A stretch of 37,921 bases of DNA from a virus. Lineage: Duplodnaviria; Heunggongvirae; Uroviricota; Caudoviricetes. Positions 1 through 10,273 of the stretch are shown here, piece after piece. The notes below the pieces were generated by a model, which saw only the letters and a program-made list of their open reading frames with translations, made no database searches and was not told where the DNA came from. The stretch lies in IMG/VR virus record IMGVR_UViG_2713896908_000005; one strand, 5' to 3'. A program made the translations under genes and the position numbers. How positions within the stretch are numbered: position 1 is the stretch's first letter; the number at the start of each line of letters is the position of its first letter.

Positions 1-125
1 TGCTGGGGCAGGCCTTTTTCCATGTCGTCTGCCAGTTCTGCCTCTTTCTCTTCACGGGCGATCTGCTGGTAGTGACGCGCCCAGCTCTGAGCCTCAAGAC
101 GATCCTGAATGTAATAAGCGTTCAT
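1..125 (-). CDS. hypothetical phage early protein, N-terminal part only (gene runs off the left edge)
   Basis: Minus-strand ATG at 125-123 with AGGAG-type SD about 7 nt upstream (rc of 133-137); frame open to position 1; begins [41 protein letters not shown]; no family recognised. Confidence 0.4.
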
Positions 126-200
126 GGCTGAACTCCTGAAAATGGCTGTGAAAATATCGCCCGCGAAATGCCAGGCTGATTAGGAAAACAGGAAAGGGGA

Positions 201-491
201 TTAGTGATTCAGGCCGTTACCGCGTCCGTCGAGAAAAACTTCCACGAGCAAATCACGGGTATAAGTGCGCTCGATGCCGCGATGCAGATAAAGCCGTCCG
301 CGTAAATTAGCTGATGCAGTCCAGGTACCATCTTTGTGTTTGACCAGCATTCCTGGCATGACCGCACCTCGATTAACGGTCTGCGTTCCATAATGTTGAT
401 GAACCATAAAAACTCCTGCCCGTAAGCTGGGCTGCTGAACATATAGAGACTTCTGCGCGTATTCAGGCGGTGGATGGCCGCCGGTTGTCAT
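201..491 (-). CDS. hypothetical protein (96 aa) in leftward early operon
   Basis: ORF from six-frame track; same orientation as repressor gene and downstream of the OL-like operator array; no recognisable motif (not N-like, no Arg-rich N-terminus). Confidence 0.35.
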
Positions 492-659
492 AACTAAGCC
501 GCCTCGTTGAAGCGACTAAGGTATGAAATGTTGAGTTAATTTCAGCTGGTCACACCGACGTTCACGCGTCCGTTTCACCCCTCGCACTCCCCGAAGCCTG
601 CTGAAATTCAAACTGCGGATCTAAGCGGTCATCGCAACGGTGAATCAGGTAGTTGCCGT

Positions 660-760
660 ATCGTTGTGTTGTTGCGATGAATTTATTTAAAACTATAGTT
701 GTTTTATCGTCAACAACAAAAGTTGTTTTATTGGTTGTTTTAGATATAACTGGTTGTATT
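660..760. promoter_or_regulatory. OL-like operator array: clustered GTTGTT / AACAAC half-sites
   Basis: Repeated motifs gttgtgttgttg (663-674), AGTTGTTTTA (698-707 and 721-730), caacaacaa (711-719), GGTTGTTTT (733-741), GGTTGTA (752-758); same half-site as the palindromic operator between the repressor and cro-like genes. Confidence 0.45.
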
Positions 761-854
761 TAGGATGGATTTATTTTGTGACTTGAATCGCATAGCGATA
801 ACTGAAGCGAGGTTATGGTGGTTTTTTTAACGGTGTGTGTGATGAGGGGAGGGC

Positions 855-881
855 AAAAGAAAACCCGGCACGGTGACCGGG
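855..881 (-). terminator. putative intrinsic terminator downstream of repressor gene (minus strand)
   Basis: CCCGG(864-868)/CCGGG(877-881) 5-bp stem with 8-nt loop; on the minus strand it is followed by UUUUCUUUU (rc of 855-863). Confidence 0.45.
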
Positions 882-1002
882 ATTCTTACGCCGTTAGGTA
901 AAGATATTATTGCGGTGGCTTAATATTACTACCTAGAGCAAAGATAGGAATTAGTTCTTTACTGAATGAGCACAATGCCCAGTTGATAATTTTTAATTGG
1001 TA

Positions 1003-1692
1003 CTACCCATGCTTCCTATATGTCTGCGGCATGCTCCCAATAACCTTACCGAAGATGAACACCCGGTTCATCTCGTCTTTCTCGATCGGGTCCCACGGTG
1101 AGTAGCTTTTGTTATCAGAGATGACCAGCAGCTTATCCTTCATCATTTGCAGGCGCTTTACATGGGCTGTGTCGTCGTACAGAAACGCATAGATACCATC
1201 ACCGTCGAAAGATTTAACTGTGATATCAACGAACAGCAGATCACCTGGTTCGATCGTTCCTGACATGCTGTCACCACGCACGTTAATGATGCGGATATTT
1301 TCCGCTTTCCTACCATCGAACATGTGACGAGCATCGTCAAACGAGTACTCAACCGAGCGTAGAACTTCTACAAACTCACGGTTGATGACTCCCGGCCCAG
1401 CACTGACTTCTATATCAAGAACGTCAATCTTGAAGTATTTGGAATGGCTGACAGTTGATTGTATTGGTTGCACTGTACTGTCTGACATATTTCCAACGCC
1501 AGAAGATAACCATTCTGCGCGCACACCCAAAGCGTTCGCGATCTCCACGATTTTAGTTGTTTGATTAGCTTTCCCTGTTTCGATTTTCTGAATAGCAGCC
1601 TGGCTAACCCCGACCAAATCCCCAAGCGCCTTTTGTGTAAGGCCTCGCGCTAATCTGGCTTCTTTAAGTCTTTCTGAGAGTGTTGTTTTCAT
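1003..1692 (-). CDS. CI-like prophage repressor (N-terminal HTH, C-terminal S24/LexA-type autopeptidase)
   Basis: Start taken at internal ATG 1692 (MKTTLSERLKEARLARGLTQKALGDLVGVSQAAIQKIE = XRE-type HTH); C-terminal half has Ala-Gly (SAGPG) cleavage-site candidate, GDSM catalytic-serine motif and a downstream Lys (HVKRL); divergent to a cro-like gene. Confidence 0.85.
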   Translation of the reverse strand: MKTTLSERLKEARLARGLTQKALGDLVGVSQAAIQKIETGKANQTTKIVEIANALGVRAEWLSSGVGNMSDSTVQPIQSTVSHSKYFKIDVLDIEVSAGPGVINREFVEVLRSVEYSFDDARHMFDGRKAENIRIINVRGDSMSGTIEPGDLLFVDITVKSFDGDGIYAFLYDDTAHVKRLQMMKDKLLVISDNKSYSPWDPIEKDEMNRVFIFGKVIGSMPQTYRKHG

Positions 1693-1796
1693 AGTCCAAA
1701 TGTACAACCAAGGTTTTATTCCATCAAACGAAAATGGTTGTTGACTAAAAACAACCATAGTTTTAATCTTGATTCAAATTAACCACGGAGGTTGTT
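1693..1796. promoter_or_regulatory. OR-like immunity operator/promoter region between repressor and cro-like genes
   Basis: 25-bp palindrome ATGGTTGTT-gactaaa-AACAACCAT at 1734-1758 plus extra half-sites ACAACCA (1704-1710) and GGTTGTT (1791-1797); rightward TTGACT (1741-1746) -N17- TAATCT (1764-1769); leftward TTGATG (rc 1722-1727) -N17- TACATT (rc 1699-1704) ending about 7 nt from the repressor ATG, implying a leaderless repressor mRNA as at lambda PRM. Confidence 0.6.
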
Positions 1797-2027
1797 ATGA
1801 ACCCAGCTATCAAAACAGCGATCAATATCGTTGGTTCACAAAAGAAACTGGGCGCTGCTTGCGAAGTTTCACAGCAGGCCGTCTATAAGTGGCTTCACAA
1901 CAAAGCAAAGGTATCCCCTGAACATGTCGGCAGCATTGTTACGGCTACTGGTGGAGTAGTGAAGGCATACCAGATTCGCCCGGATCTTCCGAAGTTGTTT
2001 CCACACACCGAAAAGAACGCAGCTTAA
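1797..2027 (+). CDS. Cro/YdaS-like small HTH regulator
   Basis: 76-aa ORF divergent from repressor with GGAGG SD; HTH-like segment QKKLGAACEVSQQAVYKWL; position and size typical of cro/ydaS. Confidence 0.7.
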   Translation: MNPAIKTAINIVGSQKKLGAACEVSQQAVYKWLHNKAKVSPEHVGSIVTATGGVVKAYQIRPDLPKLFPHTEKNAA

Positions 2028-2096
2028 ATTTCCATTTCACGCTCTTTAACAATAAGCAATCAACTTAACAGTCAATTCAAACTAAAGGAGTCAATT

Positions 2097-2636
2097 ATGC
2101 AACCACTTACATACCAACAGACTAGCGGATTTAGCCCGACTGCGGTGATAAATCGTTCTCAAACAAAACAGGTGCCAGGCCACGAAAAAATCCGTGATGC
2201 CGTCCGCGCCTGGTCGGCTGTAGATAATCAGGATGTCGTTGCCACACTCATTGTGAATGAGTATCGGGAGCAGGGCGGCGGCACCATCGATTTCCCTGAT
2301 GATGTCAGCCGTGCACGCCAGAAGCTGTTCCGCTTCCTCGATAACAAATTCGATTCTGAAAAATACCGAAATAACGTGCGTGAACTGACCCCGGCAATTC
2401 TGGCGGTACTACCGCTGGAATATCGCGGTTACCTGGTTGAGCAGGATAGCTTCATGGCTAGGTTGGCTGAAATGGAAAAGGAACTCAGTGAGGCAAAACA
2501 GGCTGTCATTCTCAACGCACCACGCCACCAGAAACTGAAGGAAATTAGTGAAGGTATTGTGTCGATGTTTCGTGTGGACCCAGATCTGGCTGGTCCATTG
2601 ATGGCGATGGTTACTACCATGCTGGGGGCGATATGA
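2097..2636 (+). CDS. YdaT-like protein (occupies the cII position)
   Basis: 179-aa ORF with AAGGAG SD; motifs EYREQGGG and LTPAILAVLP resemble what I recall of Rac YdaT; assignment from memory, not searched. Confidence 0.5.
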   Translation: MQPLTYQQTSGFSPTAVINRSQTKQVPGHEKIRDAVRAWSAVDNQDVVATLIVNEYREQGGGTIDFPDDVSRARQKLFRFLDNKFDSEKYRNNVRELTPAILAVLPLEYRGYLVEQDSFMARLAEMEKELSEAKQAVILNAPRHQKLKEISEGIVSMFRVDPDLAGPLMAMVTTMLGAI

Positions 2637-2722
2637 CAGGTTCAGAAATGGCGAAAGCCGGTCTGCTGGAACAGAACCGACTTTCAGGTGCAAATCGTAA
2701 CACACTCATTGCGGGAGGAATT

Positions 2723-3652
2723 ATGGCAAACACTGCTGAGATATTCAATTTTCCAGTGCCGGATGCGGCACAAAAGGAGCCGCGCGTGGCAGATCTCGAT
2801 GATGGTTATACGCGCATTGCAAATGAGTTGCTGGAAGCTGTGATGCTGGCCGGATTAACACAGCACCAGCTTCTGGTCTTTCTGGCTGTCATGCGCAAAA
2901 CATATGGCTTTAATAAAAAACTGGATTGGGTTAGCAACGAGCAACTTTCCGAATTAACCGGGATATTGCCGCACAAGTGTTCTGCTGCAAAAAGTGTTCT
3001 GGTAAAGCGTGGGATTTTTATTCAGAGCGGGCGGAATACCGGCATTAATAATGTGGTCAGTGAATGGTCAACATTACCCGAATCAGGTAAGAAAAATAAA
3101 GTTTACCTGAAAGAGGTAAATTTACCTGAATCAGGTAAAAAAAGTTTACCCAAATCAGGTAAAGGCGTTTACCCGAATCAGGTAAACACAAAAGACAAAC
3201 TAACAAAAGACAATATAAAACCTTTTTCGTCCGAGAATTCTGGCGAATCCTCTGACCAACCAGAAAACGATCTTCCTGTGGTGAAACCGGATGCTGCAAT
3301 TCAGAGCGGCAGCAAGTGGGGGACAGCAGAAGACCTGACCGCCGCAGAGTGGATGTTTGACATGGTGAAGACCATCGCGCCATCAGCCAGAAAACCGAAT
3401 TTTGCAGGGTGGGCTAACGATATCCGCCTGATGCGTGAACGTGACGGACGTAACCACCGCGACATGTGCGTGCTGTTCCGCTGGGCATGCCAGGACAACT
3501 TCTGGTCCGGTAACGTGCTAAGTCCGGCCAAACTCCGCGACAAGTGGACCCAGCTCGAAATCAACCGAAACAAGCAACAGGCTGGCGTGACAGCCGGCAA
3601 ACCAAAACTCGACCTGACGAACACTGACTGGATTTACGGGGTGGAGCTATGA
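2723..3652 (+). CDS. O: replication initiator, lambda O-like
   Basis: Start chosen at ATG 2723 (GGAGG SD) rather than ORF start 2633; N-terminus MANTAEIFNF...ADLDDGYTRIANELLEA...LAVMRKTYGFNK and C-terminus LDLTNTDWIYGVEL parallel lambda O as I recall it; iterons lie inside the gene. Confidence 0.85.
   Translation: MANTAEIFNFPVPDAAQKEPRVADLDDGYTRIANELLEAVMLAGLTQHQLLVFLAVMRKTYGFNKKLDWVSNEQLSELTGILPHKCSAAKSVLVKRGIFIQSGRNTGINNVVSEWSTLPESGKKNKVYLKEVNLPESGKKSLPKSGKGVYPNQVNTKDKLTKDNIKPFSSENSGESSDQPENDLPVVKPDAAIQSGSKWGTAEDLTAAEWMFDMVKTIAPSARKPNFAGWANDIRLMRERDGRNHRDMCVLFRWACQDNFWSGNVLSPAKLRDKWTQLEINRNKQQAGVTAGKPKLDLTNTDWIYGVEL
3074..3186. repeat. origin-of-replication iterons (5 copies of an approx 19-bp unit) inside the O-like gene
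   Basis: Units TTACCCGAATCAGGTAA (3074-3090), TTTACCTGAAAGAGGTAAA (3102-3120), TTTACCTGAATCAGGTAAA (3121-3139), TTTACCCAAATCAGGTAAA (3145-3163), TTTACCCGAATCAGGTAAA (3168-3186); each unit is an inverted repeat (TTTACC..GGTAAA); followed by an A-rich tract 3187-3235. Confidence 0.85.
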
Positions 3653-4350
3653 AAAACATCGCCGCACAGATGGTTAACTTTGACTGTGAGCAGATGCGCC
3701 GGATCGCCAACAACATGCCGGAACAGTACGACGAAAAGCCACAGGTACAGCAGGTAGCGCAGATCATCAACGGTGTGTTCAGCCAGTTACTGGCAACTTT
3801 CCCGGCGAGCCTGGCTAACCGTGACCAGAATGAACTGAACGAAATCCGCCGCCAGTGGGTTCTGGCTTTCCGGGAAAACGGGATCACCACAATGGAACAG
3901 GTTAACGCTGGAATGCGCGTAGCCCGTCGGCAGAATCGACCATTCCTGCCATCACCCGGGCAGTTTGTCGCCTGGTGCCGGGAAGAAGCATCTGTTAACG
4001 CCGGGCTGCCAAACGTCAGCGAGCTGGTTGATATGGTTTACGAGTATTGCCGGAAGCGTGGACTGTATCCGGATGCAGAGTCTTATCCGTGGAAATCGAA
4101 CGCGCATTACTGGTTGGTTACCAACTTGTACCAGAACATGCGGGCCAATGCGCTGACTGACGCGGAATTACGGCGCAAGGCTGCCGATGAACTGACCTGT
4201 ATGACAGCGCGAATTAACCGTGGTGAGACGATACCTGAACCAGTAAAACAACTTCCTGTTATGGGCGGTAGACCTCTAAATCGTGCACAGGCTCTGGCGA
4301 AGATCGCAGAAATTAAAGCTAAGTTCGGACTGAAAGGAGCAAGTGTATGA
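3649..4350 (+). CDS. P: replication protein P-like (DnaB helicase loader)
   Basis: 233-aa product (MKNIAAQMVNFD...KAKFGLKGASV) closely matches lambda P as I recall it, including length; start overlaps the O stop. Confidence 0.9.
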   Translation: MKNIAAQMVNFDCEQMRRIANNMPEQYDEKPQVQQVAQIINGVFSQLLATFPASLANRDQNELNEIRRQWVLAFRENGITTMEQVNAGMRVARRQNRPFLPSPGQFVAWCREEASVNAGLPNVSELVDMVYEYCRKRGLYPDAESYPWKSNAHYWLVTNLYQNMRANALTDAELRRKAADELTCMTARINRGETIPEPVKQLPVMGGRPLNRAQALAKIAEIKAKFGLKGASV

Positions 4351-4649
4351 CGGGCAAAGAGGCAATTATTCATTACCTGGGGACGCATAAGAGCTTCTGT
4401 GCACAGGACGTTGCCGCGGTAACAGGCGCAACCGTAACCAGCATAAATCAGGCTGCGGCTAAAATGGCGCGGGCAGGAATCCTGGTCGTTGATGGTAAGG
4501 TCTGGCGAACGGTGTATTACCGGTTCGCTACCAGAGAAGAACGGGAAGGAAAGGTGAGCACGAATCTGATTTTTAAGGAGTGTCGCCAGAGTGCCGCGAT
4601 GAAACGGGTATTGAGGGTATATAAAAGAACATCAATGGGTACACAATGA
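4347..4649 (+). CDS. ren: Ren-like protein
   Basis: MTGKEAIIHYLGTH...VWRTVYYRFATREEREGK matches my recollection of lambda Ren; ATGA overlap with the P stop. Confidence 0.8.
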   Translation: MTGKEAIIHYLGTHKSFCAQDVAAVTGATVTSINQAAAKMARAGILVVDGKVWRTVYYRFATREEREGKVSTNLIFKECRQSAAMKRVLRVYKRTSMGTQ

Positions 4650-4716
4650 TGAAACAGGTGAGTTGAGTTCAAACTGTAGTACAATTCTCTCCAGTTTGAA
4701 CAGGAAAGAATATGTT

Positions 4717-5049
4717 ATGAACCCTTATATTTATCTTGGTGGTGCAATACTTGCAGAGGTCATTGGTACAACCTTAATGAAGTTTTCAGAAGGTTTTACA
4801 CGGTTATGGCCATCTGTTGGTACAATTATTTGTTATTGTGCATCATTCTGGTTATTAGCTCAGACGCTGGCTTATATTCCTACAGGGATTGCTTATGCTA
4901 TCTGGTCAGGAGTCGGTATTGTCCTGATTAGCTTACTGTCATGGGGATTTTTCGGCCAACGGCTGGACCTGCCAGCCATTATAGGCATGATGTTGATTTG
5001 TGCCGGTGTGTTGGTTATTAATTTATTGTCACGAAGCACACCACATTAA
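4717..5049 (+). CDS. emrE: small multidrug resistance (SMR) efflux transporter EmrE
   Basis: Start at internal ATG 4717; 110-aa product MNPYIYLGGAILAEVIGTTLMKFSEGFTRLWPS... with four hydrophobic helices and the conserved membrane-embedded Glu (AEVIGT); matches E. coli EmrE as recalled. Confidence 0.9.
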   Translation: MNPYIYLGGAILAEVIGTTLMKFSEGFTRLWPSVGTIICYCASFWLLAQTLAYIPTGIAYAIWSGVGIVLISLLSWGFFGQRLDLPAIIGMMLICAGVLVINLLSRSTPH

Positions 5050-5080
5050 AAATAATTTGTTTCTAAACGACTAAAATATG

Positions 5081-5114
5081 GAGGCTCTTATATTTATATG
5101 AGCCTCGTTTTATG
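5081..5114 (+). terminator. intrinsic terminator after emrE
   Basis: Perfect 7-bp stem GAGGCTC (5081-5087) / GAGCCTC (5100-5106), 12-nt AT loop, then T-rich run gttttatgcttttt. Confidence 0.6.
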
Positions 5115-5304
5115 CTTTTTGTTAATGTCTTTATTTTTTATGTATTCTTTTGTGCTTTCAAGATTATGGCGTAAGAAAATTGCAATACGATTATTGTTGT
5201 ATATTCAAGATAATGTGACCTTAATTGTCTTTTTAAATAAAAATTAAACAAAAATTATATCCCACCACTAAGGTTTATAAAAGCATACGTTAGCAGGTGT
5301 CACC

Positions 5305-6831
5305 ATGAAAAAAGCCATAGCATATATGCGATTTTCATCACCAGGTCAGATGTCTGGCGACTCATTAAACCGACAGAGAAGACTTATTGCTGAATGGTTA
5401 AAGGTAAATGGTGATTATTATCTTGATACCATAACATATGAAGATTTAGGATTAAGTGCATTCAAAGGAAAGCATGCACAATCAGGAGCTTTTTCGGAAT
5501 TTTTAGATGCTATAGAGCATGGTTATATATTGCCAGGAACTACATTGTTAGTTGAAAGTCTGGACAGACTTTCAAGAGAAAAAGTCGGTGAAGCGATTGA
5601 ACGTCTGAAATTGATTTTGAATCACGGTATTGATGTTATAACTCTTTGCGACAATACAGTCTATAATATTGACTCTTTGAATGAGCCATATTCATTAATA
5701 AAAGCCATACTTATAGCACAAAGGGCAAATGAAGAAAGCGAGATAAAGTCAAGTCGGGTTAAATTATCATGGAAGAAAAAACGGCAGGATGCACTGGAAT
5801 CAGGTACGATTATGACGGCGTCTTGTCCGAGATGGCTCTCCTTAGATGACAAAAGAACGGCTTTTGTTCCAGACCCCGACAGGGTGAAAACTATTGAGCT
5901 AATTTTTAAACTCAGGATGGAAAGGCGCTCATTGAATGCAATAGCCAAGTATTTAAATGATCATGCTGTAAAGAATTTCTCAGGAAAAGAAAGTGCATGG
6001 GGACCTTCTGTAATTGAAAAATTATTAGCGAATAAAGCTCTGATAGGTATATGCGTACCTTCATATCGTGCAAGAGGGAAAGGGATAAGTGAAATCGCTG
6101 GCTATTATCCCAGAGTCATATCAGATGATTTGTTTTACGCTGTACAGGAAATTCGGTTGGCACCTTTTGGTATTAGCAATAGTAGCAAGAATCCTATGCT
6201 AATAAATCTACTTCGAACAGTTATGAAGTGTGAGGCTTGTGGTAATACCATGATTGTTCATGCGGTATCTGGAAGTTTGCATGGCTATTATGTTTGTCCG
6301 ATGAGAAGATTACATCGATGTGACAGGCCATCAATAAAAAGAGATTTGGTTGATTATAATATCATTAATGAATTGCTTTTTAATTGTAGCAAAATTCAAC
6401 CAGTTGAAAACAAGAAAGATGCTAATGAAACTTTAGAGTTAAAAATTATTGAGCTTCAGATGAAAATTAATAATTTAATCGTTGCATTGTCTGTCGCGCC
6501 TGAAGTTACCGCTATAGCAGAGAAAATAAGACTATTAGATAAGGAATTACGAAGGGCTTCGGTATCATTGAAAACTTTGAAGAGTAAAGGTGTAAATTCA
6601 TTCAGTGATTTTTATGCTATTGACTTAACCAGTAAAAATGGACGAGAGTTATGCCGTACACTTGCCTATAAAACATTCGAAAAAATCATAATTAATACGG
6701 ATAATAAAACCTGTGATATCTATTTTATGAATGGCATTGTTTTTAAACACTATCCTTTAATGAAAGTAATATCCGCCCAGCAGGCGATAAGTGCTCTCAA
6801 ATATATGGTTGATGGTGAGGTTTATTTTTGA
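5305..6831 (+). CDS. ybcK: large serine recombinase (YbcK-like)
   Basis: 508 aa; N-terminal resolvase-type catalytic domain (AIAYMRFSSPGQ with candidate nucleophile Ser, later LDRLSR), long C-terminal extension with Cys cluster (CEACGNT...YYVCPMRRLHRC) and coiled coil; AT-rich, follows emrE as in DLP12. Confidence 0.8.
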   Translation: MKKAIAYMRFSSPGQMSGDSLNRQRRLIAEWLKVNGDYYLDTITYEDLGLSAFKGKHAQSGAFSEFLDAIEHGYILPGTTLLVESLDRLSREKVGEAIERLKLILNHGIDVITLCDNTVYNIDSLNEPYSLIKAILIAQRANEESEIKSSRVKLSWKKKRQDALESGTIMTASCPRWLSLDDKRTAFVPDPDRVKTIELIFKLRMERRSLNAIAKYLNDHAVKNFSGKESAWGPSVIEKLLANKALIGICVPSYRARGKGISEIAGYYPRVISDDLFYAVQEIRLAPFGISNSSKNPMLINLLRTVMKCEACGNTMIVHAVSGSLHGYYVCPMRRLHRCDRPSIKRDLVDYNIINELLFNCSKIQPVENKKDANETLELKIIELQMKINNLIVALSVAPEVTAIAEKIRLLDKELRRASVSLKTLKSKGVNSFSDFYAIDLTSKNGRELCRTLAYKTFEKIIINTDNKTCDIYFMNGIVFKHYPLMKVISAQQAISALKYMVDGEVYF

Positions 6832-8078: not shown

Positions 8079-8107
8079 GTCACCGGAGCTTGAACAACTC
8101 CGGTGAC
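8079..8107 (+). terminator. stem-loop downstream of the small AT-rich gene (possible terminator)
   Basis: GTCACCGGAG (8079-8088) / CTCCGGTGAC (8098-8107) perfect 10-bp stem, 9-nt loop; only a weak T-tract follows (ttctgcgcattt). Confidence 0.3.
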
Positions 8108-8226
8108 TTCTGCGCATTTAAGGGGACTTAAATGCGACCACAATCTGAACTCCTTACCTTGTCACAGATGCAGAAATGCACCTGCGATGTCTTGCATCCA
8201 GCGTTTGATCTCTGCGGAGGTGAAGC

Positions 8227-10067: not shown

Positions 10068-10073
10068 AAGTTA

Positions 10074-10095
10074 AAAGCCACCGTAGTGGCTTTTA
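10074..10095. terminator. bidirectional intrinsic terminator-like hairpin immediately after Q
   Basis: AAAAGCCAC (10074-10082) cgta GTGGCTTTT (10087-10095): GC stem flanked by an A-tract on one side and a T-tract on the other. Confidence 0.6.
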
Positions 10096-10273
10096 ACTTT
10101 TTAGGATTGTGCAGGTAATGTTTTGTTCAATTTAGTAAAGAAGTTAGATTGGCTTGTTACAGTGCGTCGACTCTTTCCAGAAGTACTCAACTGAAAGAAA
10201 TCATTGATGCTTTTGGGTTGAGTTCTTTCATAGGCTTGCTTAAGTGACATGTGTTCCCCTTGTCTATTTGTTG

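Follow-up and report, generated by a model that had tools for sequence, protein, structure and literature searches.

Among the described phage switches closest to the one analyzed here, the operators of phage 434 are 14 base pairs (bp) long, with the outer five bases on either side contacted and the central four uncontacted (PMC1636474). In the cryptic prophage CP-933P of Escherichia coli O157:H7, operators are present both at the PR/PRM promoters and at a distant PL promoter, four repeats lie in the intergenic region, and the repressor mRNA has been proven to be leaderless by 5′ RACE and N-terminal sequencing (PMC8630535). Leaderless repressor translation is experimentally documented both for lambda cI and for CP-933P paaR2 (PMC8630535), and phage 933W, an Stx2 phage, has a switch without a third left operator (OL3; PMC5977221) and a repressor that is reported to bind non-cooperatively. 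Here we analyze the immunity region of a 37,921-nucleotide (nt) stretch of viral DNA, IMG/VR record IMGVR_UViG_2713896908_000005 (the whole stretch is called “the window” below), which belongs to a lambdoid temperate phage. Judged from sequence comparison, this region is likely a lambdoid immunity switch in which a 434-like CI repressor, made from a leaderless message and subject to SOS self-cleavage, acts on 14-bp operators.

The repressor-binding unit predicted by comparison is a 14-bp site of the phage 434 type, ACAACYNNRGTTGT (ACAAC-N4-GTTGT). For comparison, 35 loci were selected from one-genome-per-species data by the recognition helix of the repressor, VSQAAIQK; they represent about 15 genera of enterobacteria (Kosakonia, Enterobacter, Klebsiella, Pectobacterium, Brenneria, Serratia, Morganella, Pantoea, Erwinia, Rosenbergiella, and Arsenophonus among them). 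Apart from L116, which is more distant, and L119, which is truncated, all have such a 14-mer (e.g., ACAACCTAGGTTGT, ACAACTCAAGTTGT, or ACAACTCCGGTTGT) upstream of the repressor start. When exact pentamers were counted by the gap between them, the arrangement ACAAC-gap-GTTGT peaked at 4 nt only (25 cases), and the opposite arrangement, GTTGT-gap-ACAAC, was spread over gaps of 8, 9, and 10 nt. In the 19 relatives with three right operator (OR) sites, the outer 5 + 5 bases of the 14-mers are near-invariant and the central four are free (e.g., ACAACCTAGGTTGT and ACAACTCCGGTTGT at OR3). Spacing is kept as well: OR3 and OR2 are 24 bp apart in the window and in 18 of these 19 relatives, and OR2 and OR1 are 23 bp apart in the window and in 16 of them (range 22–24). 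Sites with no more than one mismatch occur six times in the window (1.09 expected), five of them within OR or the left operator region (OL); in the 6-kb loci of the relatives, nearly all such sites fall either in OR or in a pair with 24-bp spacing downstream of the repressor gene. This second pair lies 0.8–2.7 kb downstream of that gene in almost every relative, and of 29 unique relatives 28 keep OL2 and OL1 exactly 24 bp apart. A further 80 IMG/VR loci, used for a profile of variant positions only since all encode an identical cI and show little divergence, have seven variable positions within the five operators, six of which are central (positions 7–9).

The original prediction had started from a shorter element, a GGTTGTT half-site shared by two loci about 1 kb apart. 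Exact GGTTGTT is not enriched across the window (8 copies found, 5.5 expected; four of the eight are located in 733–1796), and this 7-mer was set aside as a motif in favor of the 14-mer. The two clusters themselves are real, as counts of the core pentamer ACAAC/GTTGT make clear: five in 678–768, where 0.17 would be expected (Poisson P ~9e-7), and four in 1693–1796, where 0.19 would be expected (P ~5e-5). The GTTGTGTTGTTG run at 663–674, on the left edge of the region first pointed out, is not an operator; it is present in the heteroimmune phage 4A7 as well, so it is not immunity-specific.

Phage 4A7 provides a control of specificity. Its repressor is identical to that of the window from about residue 84 on (the whole C-domain), and its N-domain (helix VAQPTIWR) and cro differ. 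There is no ACAAC-N4-GTTGT site with at most one mismatch in the 5.5-kb locus of 4A7, which carries its own 14-mers (e.g., ATACGCTTGCGTAT and ATACGCATTGCTAT) at both loci. 4A7 differs in N-domain, OR, and OL together, so a change of DNA-binding domain goes with a change of operator sequence at each of the two loci. The two phages are near-identical again from about 773 through the terminator and the C-domain, so that two cassettes (Table 1) have been swapped together around a shared C-domain, a clean case of immunity-module exchange in nature. On its left, the OL cassette ends where PL transcription is predicted to start. Some phage matches cover only 949–1455 of the window, and in PhiR47_2, PhiR5_1, and PhiR26_1 the OL/PL cassette is kept beside different cargo genes.

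The fold of the repressor is in keeping with operators of this length. Its N-domain matches Pfam HTH_3 (E 5.4e-13) and its C-domain Peptidase_S24 (E 1.2e-18), and the closest solved relative of residues 5–68 is the phage 434 repressor, aligned without gaps over residues 2–65 (E 4.5e-9). The suggestion that the protein carries LexA-type Ala-Gly/Ser/Lys elements is borne out by alignment: Ala98-Gly99, Ser142, and Lys179 correspond to A84-G85, S119, and K156 of LexA, to A111-G112, S149, and K192 of lambda CI, and to C24-G25, S60, and K97 of UmuD (the BLAST and MAFFT alignments were mutually consistent). Ser142 and Lys179 are invariant in this alignment, and the context of the scissile bond, V96-S-A98-G99, aligns with VAA84-G85 of LexA, VQA111-G112 of lambda CI, and VQC24-G25 of UmuD. 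With a helix-turn-helix (HTH) domain, the S24 Ser/Lys pair, and the Ala-Gly bond, the protein has the sequence features of a LexA-like self-cleaving repressor, which supports its predicted assignment to that type.

The promoter of the repressor gene keeps a constant position relative to the start codon. Of 32 unique upstream sequences, heteroimmune 4A7 included, 31 have a TAnnnT hexamer whose end is separated from the ATG by 6 nt (27 cases) or 7 nt (4 cases), and TTGnnn precedes this hexamer by 17 nt in 30; the six nt between the −10 hexamer and the ATG (TGGACT in the window) vary freely among relatives. The cI gene has no Shine-Dalgarno sequence, with a median anti-Shine-Dalgarno pairing energy of −3.5 kcal/mol vs. 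−10.2 for cro. An in-frame stop is found 0–13 codons upstream of the MKTTL or MKKETL start in 29 of the 35 relatives, and an upstream ATG is missing in most. From the PRM geometry, the absent Shine-Dalgarno sequence, and these stops, we strongly infer that the cI maintenance mRNA is leaderless, in agreement with the original prediction of a leftward TTGATG-N17-TACATT promoter next to the repressor ATG. The layout of PR is the same in relatives, with −10 hexamers reading TATATT, TATTCT, or TAATAT there, and the PR-like promoter and the PL module (I2) match at about 95%. In nearly all relatives OL2 is immediately followed by TTGAC(A/T/G) and OL1 by TTAAAT, which points to a conserved PL. A generic sigma-70 promoter scan called one rightward candidate (TTGCGA-N16-TATAGT, 672–699); this was dismissed as a chance match, its −10 hexamer being the center of OL1.

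As we picture the switch, the CI-type repressor with its 434-like HTH would bind ACAACYNNRGTTGT as a dimer, reading the outer 5 + 5 bases and leaving the central four free. OR1 and OR2 would flank and occlude PR, OR3 would overlap PRM, and OL1 and OL2, which lie over the spacer and −35 hexamer of PL, would occlude PL, by analogy with lambda and 434. Lambda CI activates PRM from near −42, and OR2, centered at −42.5 of PRM, would occupy the same position; its weak left half, again as in lambda, suggests dependence on cooperative binding with OR1. The YdaS-family Cro, which is exchanged along with the N-domain and the operators, would be expected on the same sites. Transcription from PRM would begin at the A of the cI AUG, giving a maintenance transcript without a leader. 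During the SOS response, activated RecA would stimulate self-cleavage at Ala98-Gly99 by Ser142/Lys179, and the DNA-binding domain would be split from the dimerization domain, resulting in prophage induction. OL1 and OR1 are 1062 bp apart, and OL–OR looping across this distance is possible.

Several observations weigh against this picture. The left half of OR2 is poor (two mismatches), and OR3 is perfect in many relatives, yet lambda logic would make it the site that the repressor binds most weakly; sequence alone does not give the ranking of affinities. Full sites in OL number only two, whereas a switch of the 434 type has three each in OR and OL. The generic sigma-70 scan called none of PRM, PR, and PL, whose hexamers do not reach its thresholds, and support for them comes from conservation. 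Many of the relatives are closely akin (about a dozen are Pectobacterium species), so that there are fewer independent observations than the counts suggest. Finally, cI and cro are always exchanged together, and the comparison therefore cannot tell which protein reads which site. This joint exchange of cI N-domain, cro, and operators could be taken to mean that Cro (YdaS) or some other factor is the main reader of the ACAAC/GTTGT elements and that the CI-type repressor recognizes something else, as could the orphan half-sites and the fourth operator-like site (O4), which misfit a simple model of CI dimers. We regard this as very improbable: the loci were picked by the recognition helix of the repressor, VSQAAIQK, and all carry the motif, including the Pectobacterium loci in which the right side is different, and the 14-bp geometry agrees with the 434 repressor fold of the N-domain. 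To our knowledge, CI and Cro share their operators in all lambdoid switches that have been studied. Such sharing, known from CP-933P (PMC8630535), disfavors a reading mainly by Cro.

Two other readings concern the palindrome between the divergent genes and the start of the repressor. The 25-bp palindrome singled out by the original prediction (arms ATGGTTGTT around a 7-bp center) might itself be the main operator, bound symmetrically by one dimer or tetramer: it is exact, a 9-nt gap like its own is seen most often (11 of 18 cases), and in Morganella L105 an equally perfect one has both arms changed (ATAGTTGTT...AACAACTAT). However, the facing halves are separated by 9 nt at PR but by 10 nt at PL in the window, and by 8–10 nt among relatives, while the gap within an operator is always 4 nt, so the palindrome is not the recognition unit. 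Further, OR3 and the OL sites are isolated 14-mers outside any 25-bp palindrome context, a 434-type HTH dimer spans 14 bp rather than 25, and the center of the palindrome is conserved because it is the PR −35 hexamer. Nor is the palindrome remarkable on its own, since perfect inverted repeats whose arms reach at least 9 bp occur about 10 times independently in the window (19 nested hits, vs. 2.45 hits in shuffles); what is notable is where it lies, in the intergenic region of 104 bp between the divergent genes. Its exactness and its GGTTGT half-site hold up, but as a 25-bp binding unit it is quite improbable. As for the start, the repressor would be a 251-aa protein on a leadered transcript, and cI mRNA not leaderless, if translation began at the ATG at 1758, to which the reading frame is indeed open and from which the records of PhiR34_1 and PhiR5_1 (PV340559.1, PV340545.1) annotate a cI of 756 nt. 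Against this, RefSeq and two other phage records give 690 nt, every homologue starts with MKTTL or MKKETL, and the ATG at 1758 lies in the flank of OR1, inside PR; the PRM −10 hexamer would fall within the coding region. (The first protein search returned mainly fragments and served only to define the N-terminus and two N-domain classes.) Because the N-termini of homologues and the upstream stops favor the 229-aa start, we treat the longer reading frame as an artefact and a leadered 251-aa repressor as extremely unlikely; a recurrent annotation error is corrected in this way.

Compared with the described systems, the 14-bp switch resembles phage 434 most in its homologous N-domain, its 14-bp operators, and its three OR sites over divergent PRM/PR. 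We take the 434 consensus to be ACAA-N6-TTGT, in which case the outer ACAA/TTGT is the same as in the window operators. The differences from 434 lie in the recognition helix (SQAAIQK here, TQQSIEQ in 434), in the fifth operator base, which here is an invariant C, in a Cro of the YdaS family, in an OL with two full sites plus orphan half-sites, and in a fourth site over the cro ribosome-binding site. Three of what are presumably the four DNA contacts of the 434 repressor differ here (Gln29 to Ala, Ser30 to Ala, and Gln33 to Lys; Gln28 is kept). Lambda is matched in the divergent PRM/PR, three operators 23–24 bp apart, OR2 near −42, PL operators about 1 kb away, an S24-type C-domain with Ala-Gly, Ser, and Lys, and a leaderless cI message (here inferred). 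Unlike lambda, with its 17-bp operators and different type of N-domain, this locus has 14-bp operators, no rexAB, no N gene, and a YdaT-family protein in the position of cII. CP-933P likewise combines a YdaS-family Cro with a YdaT-family cII-like protein, but its repressor, PaaR2, lacks the S24 type and is encoded in a toxin-antitoxin operon (paaA2-parE2), and its repeats are 18 bp long (consensus GTTTAGTAA); the window repressor is an HTH + S24 protein with no gene before the terminator. As in 933W, there is no full third OL site, although the operator sequence of 933W is unrelated. The cI of HK022 is 41% identical over the full-length repressor (tblastn), and both loci lack an N gene in the usual place, but the operators differ, and the stretch downstream of PL that holds the put site in HK022 shows no similarity at the DNA level. 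The operator sequences of the window did not turn up in the literature searched. The switch adds another case to the lambda/434 paradigm, useful for annotation and conceptually unsurprising.

Two features conserved across genera may set this switch apart from a plain 3 + 3 copy of lambda or 434, which we put forward only as a tentative proposal. One is O4, found with at most two mismatches in 16 of the 19 three-site relatives at 27–32 bp from OR1, often as ACAACGGAGGTTGT or a one-base variant; 4A7 has its own half-site type at this position. The cro-like protein encoded just downstream matches Pfam YdaS_toxin (E 4e-17) and P22_Cro (E 8e-5), and its closest solved relative is the prophage Cro 3bd1 (E 7e-4). 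An RNA hairpin at O4 that would hide the cro Shine-Dalgarno sequence was considered and rejected, the fold being unremarkable (z = −0.5). The other feature is at OL, where the likeness to lambda seen in the original prediction holds for an operator set at two loci but not for a three-site OL: a full OL3 24 bp beyond OL2 was found neither in the window nor in relatives, half-sites alone being present there. The half-sites noted earlier at 733–739 and 751–757 have no partner halves. Orphan ACAAC(C) half-sites of this kind, all in one orientation, are found upstream of OL2 not only in the window but also in some eight independent lineages, and their offsets cluster at 12–13, 20–22, 31–32, 41–42, and 52–53 nt, i.e., one helical repeat (about 10 bp) apart. 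Should O4 and the orphan half-sites be functional, cro expression would also be blocked by the repressor or Cro at a point downstream of the PR start, and beyond OL2 the same protein would line up along a single helical face, perhaps as part of an OL–OR loop. We know of no lambdoid switch for which such an architecture has been described.

Table 1. Features of the immunity region and neighboring genes (window coordinates; promoters and operators are predicted).
Feature	Position	Strand	Sequence or composition	Remarks
gam	1-126			Cut; from the reading of the first 5 kb
kil-like gene	201-491	-		Shorter in RefSeq (201-407)
OL/PL immunity-specific cassette	678..772			Alignment with 4A7 identical to 677 and from ~773, diverged between
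PL-like promoter	685..713	-	TTGACG (713..708), 17 nt, TTAAAT (690..685)	Predicted +1 near 678
OL1	689-702		Plus AAAACTATAGTTGT; minus ACAACTATAGTTTT	In PL spacer
OL2	713-726		Plus ACAACAAAAGTTGT; minus ACAACTTTTGTTGT	10/10 specified bases matched; 24 bp from OL1
Two orphan half-sites	733..757	-	ACAACC (738..733 and 757..752)	12 and 31 nt upstream of OL2 start
Intrinsic terminator of cI operon	864..881	-	CCCGGTCACCGTGCCGGG, then T-run	Conserved
cI-type repressor gene	1003..1692	-	229 aa, start MKTTL	690 nt, as RefSeq WP_000858975.1
Repressor codons	Lys179 1156-1158; Ser142 1267-1269; Ala98-Gly99 1396-1401	-
Right immunity-specific cassette	1456..1796, continuing into cro		Coding part of cI N-domain + OR	4A7 near-identical to ~1455, then diverged
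PRM-like promoter	1699..1727	-	TTGATG (1727..1722), 17 nt, TACATT (1704..1699)	Predicted +1 at A of ATG, 1692
OR3	1704-1717		Plus ACAACCAAGGTTTT	Centered at -18.5 of PRM
OR2	1728-1741		Plus ACGAAAATGGTTGT	Weak left half; adjoins PRM -35; centered at -42.5 of PRM
Perfect palindrome	1734..1758		ATGGTTGTT-N7-AACAACCAT, 9-bp arms	OR2 right half + PR -35 + OR1 left half
PR-like promoter	1741..1769	+	TTGACT (1741-1746), 17 nt, TAATCT (1764-1769)	Predicted +1 near 1776
OR1	1751-1764		Plus ACAACCATAGTTTT	In PR spacer; centered at -18.5 of PR
O4, fourth operator-like 14-mer	1782..1795		ACCACGGAGGTTGT	Over cro Shine-Dalgarno; ~+7 to +20 of PR transcript
cro-like gene	1797..2027	+	76 aa	YdaS family
YdaT-family gene	2097-2636			cII position; Pfam YdaT_toxin E 8.5e-30
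O, P, ren, then small multidrug resistance transporter				Downstream of YdaT-family gene

The element that carries this region is a very common E. coli lambda-like prophage with an ordinary lysis/lysogeny control region. The 1.5 kb around the immunity region is 99.9% identical to Escherichia phages PhiR34_1 and Turner, both isolated as viable phages, in which the counterpart genes are annotated as cI, Cro, and cII. Of 5426 complete E. coli genomes, 1048 contain the immunity region with a coverage of at least 80%, i.e., this immunity type is present in about one-fifth of them, and its operators, promoters, and likely SOS trigger should be useful for annotation, for superinfection-immunity grouping, and for the engineering or induction of prophages. 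The gene order is gam, kil, PL/OL, terminator, cI, OR, cro, ydaT (cII-like), O, P, and ren. No solved relative of the YdaT-family protein was found at E ≤ 0.001, with CP-933P YdaT included among the candidates. The CP-933P YdaT operator, TTGATT-N6-AATCAA, was tried as a marker of PRE and was not enriched in the window (25 found, 25.3 expected).

The terminator of the cI operon is kept in relatives, and cargo genes are inserted between it and cI there. In the window this slot between the cI stop codon and the terminator (882–1002, about 120 nt) is empty; in close relatives (L002 2560–3988, L003 2304–3877, and L004 3289–3669) its cargo is annotated as GevA/GevT, as a HipA-like toxin pair, or as a lipoprotein. 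The slot, which is at the position of lambda rexAB, looks like a hotspot for cargo or defense genes inside the cI operon, and relatives of this widespread immunity type carry anti-phage or toxin cargo there.

On the PL side, there is no N-like gene between PL and kil, and the 187-nt PL leader (492–678, minus strand) is conserved even in heteroimmune 4A7. Given the lack of an N gene, a put-like antiterminator or other structured RNA in this leader was considered and dropped: an Rfam search over 1–5200 at E ≤ 1 matched no family except a chance rliD, the folding energy of the leader was no better than that of shuffled sequences (z = 0.18), and the leader had no DNA similarity to the early-left region of HK022. 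The leader does contain a 31-codon arginine-rich open reading frame (...KRTRERR...) at 516–611 on the minus strand.

An operator-like 14-mer is also present within the cI gene (1547–1560; minus strand ACAACTAAAATCGT, two mismatches). At the matching spot, the Pectobacterium homologues read ACAACCAAAATTGT, and the stretch encodes an invariant T-T-K-I-V; coding constraint probably accounts for it. The Pectobacterium loci (L087–L098, about a dozen species) have a homologous repressor with a perfect ACAACCTAGGTTGT over its own promoter and differ on the right side, where OR2, OR1, and the cro leader are unrecognizable in the 130 nt read. This repressor may be a fixed, domesticated regulator rather than part of an active prophage switch.

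Farther to the right, the gene for an EmrE-like small multidrug resistance transporter (4663–5049) lies in the early-right region after ren, an arrangement presumably shared with prophage DLP12 of E. coli K-12. Further perfect inverted repeats (arm length 9–13 bp) are located at 5552–5575, 8079–8136, and 10069–10098; these are probably terminators or regulatory sites of later genes.

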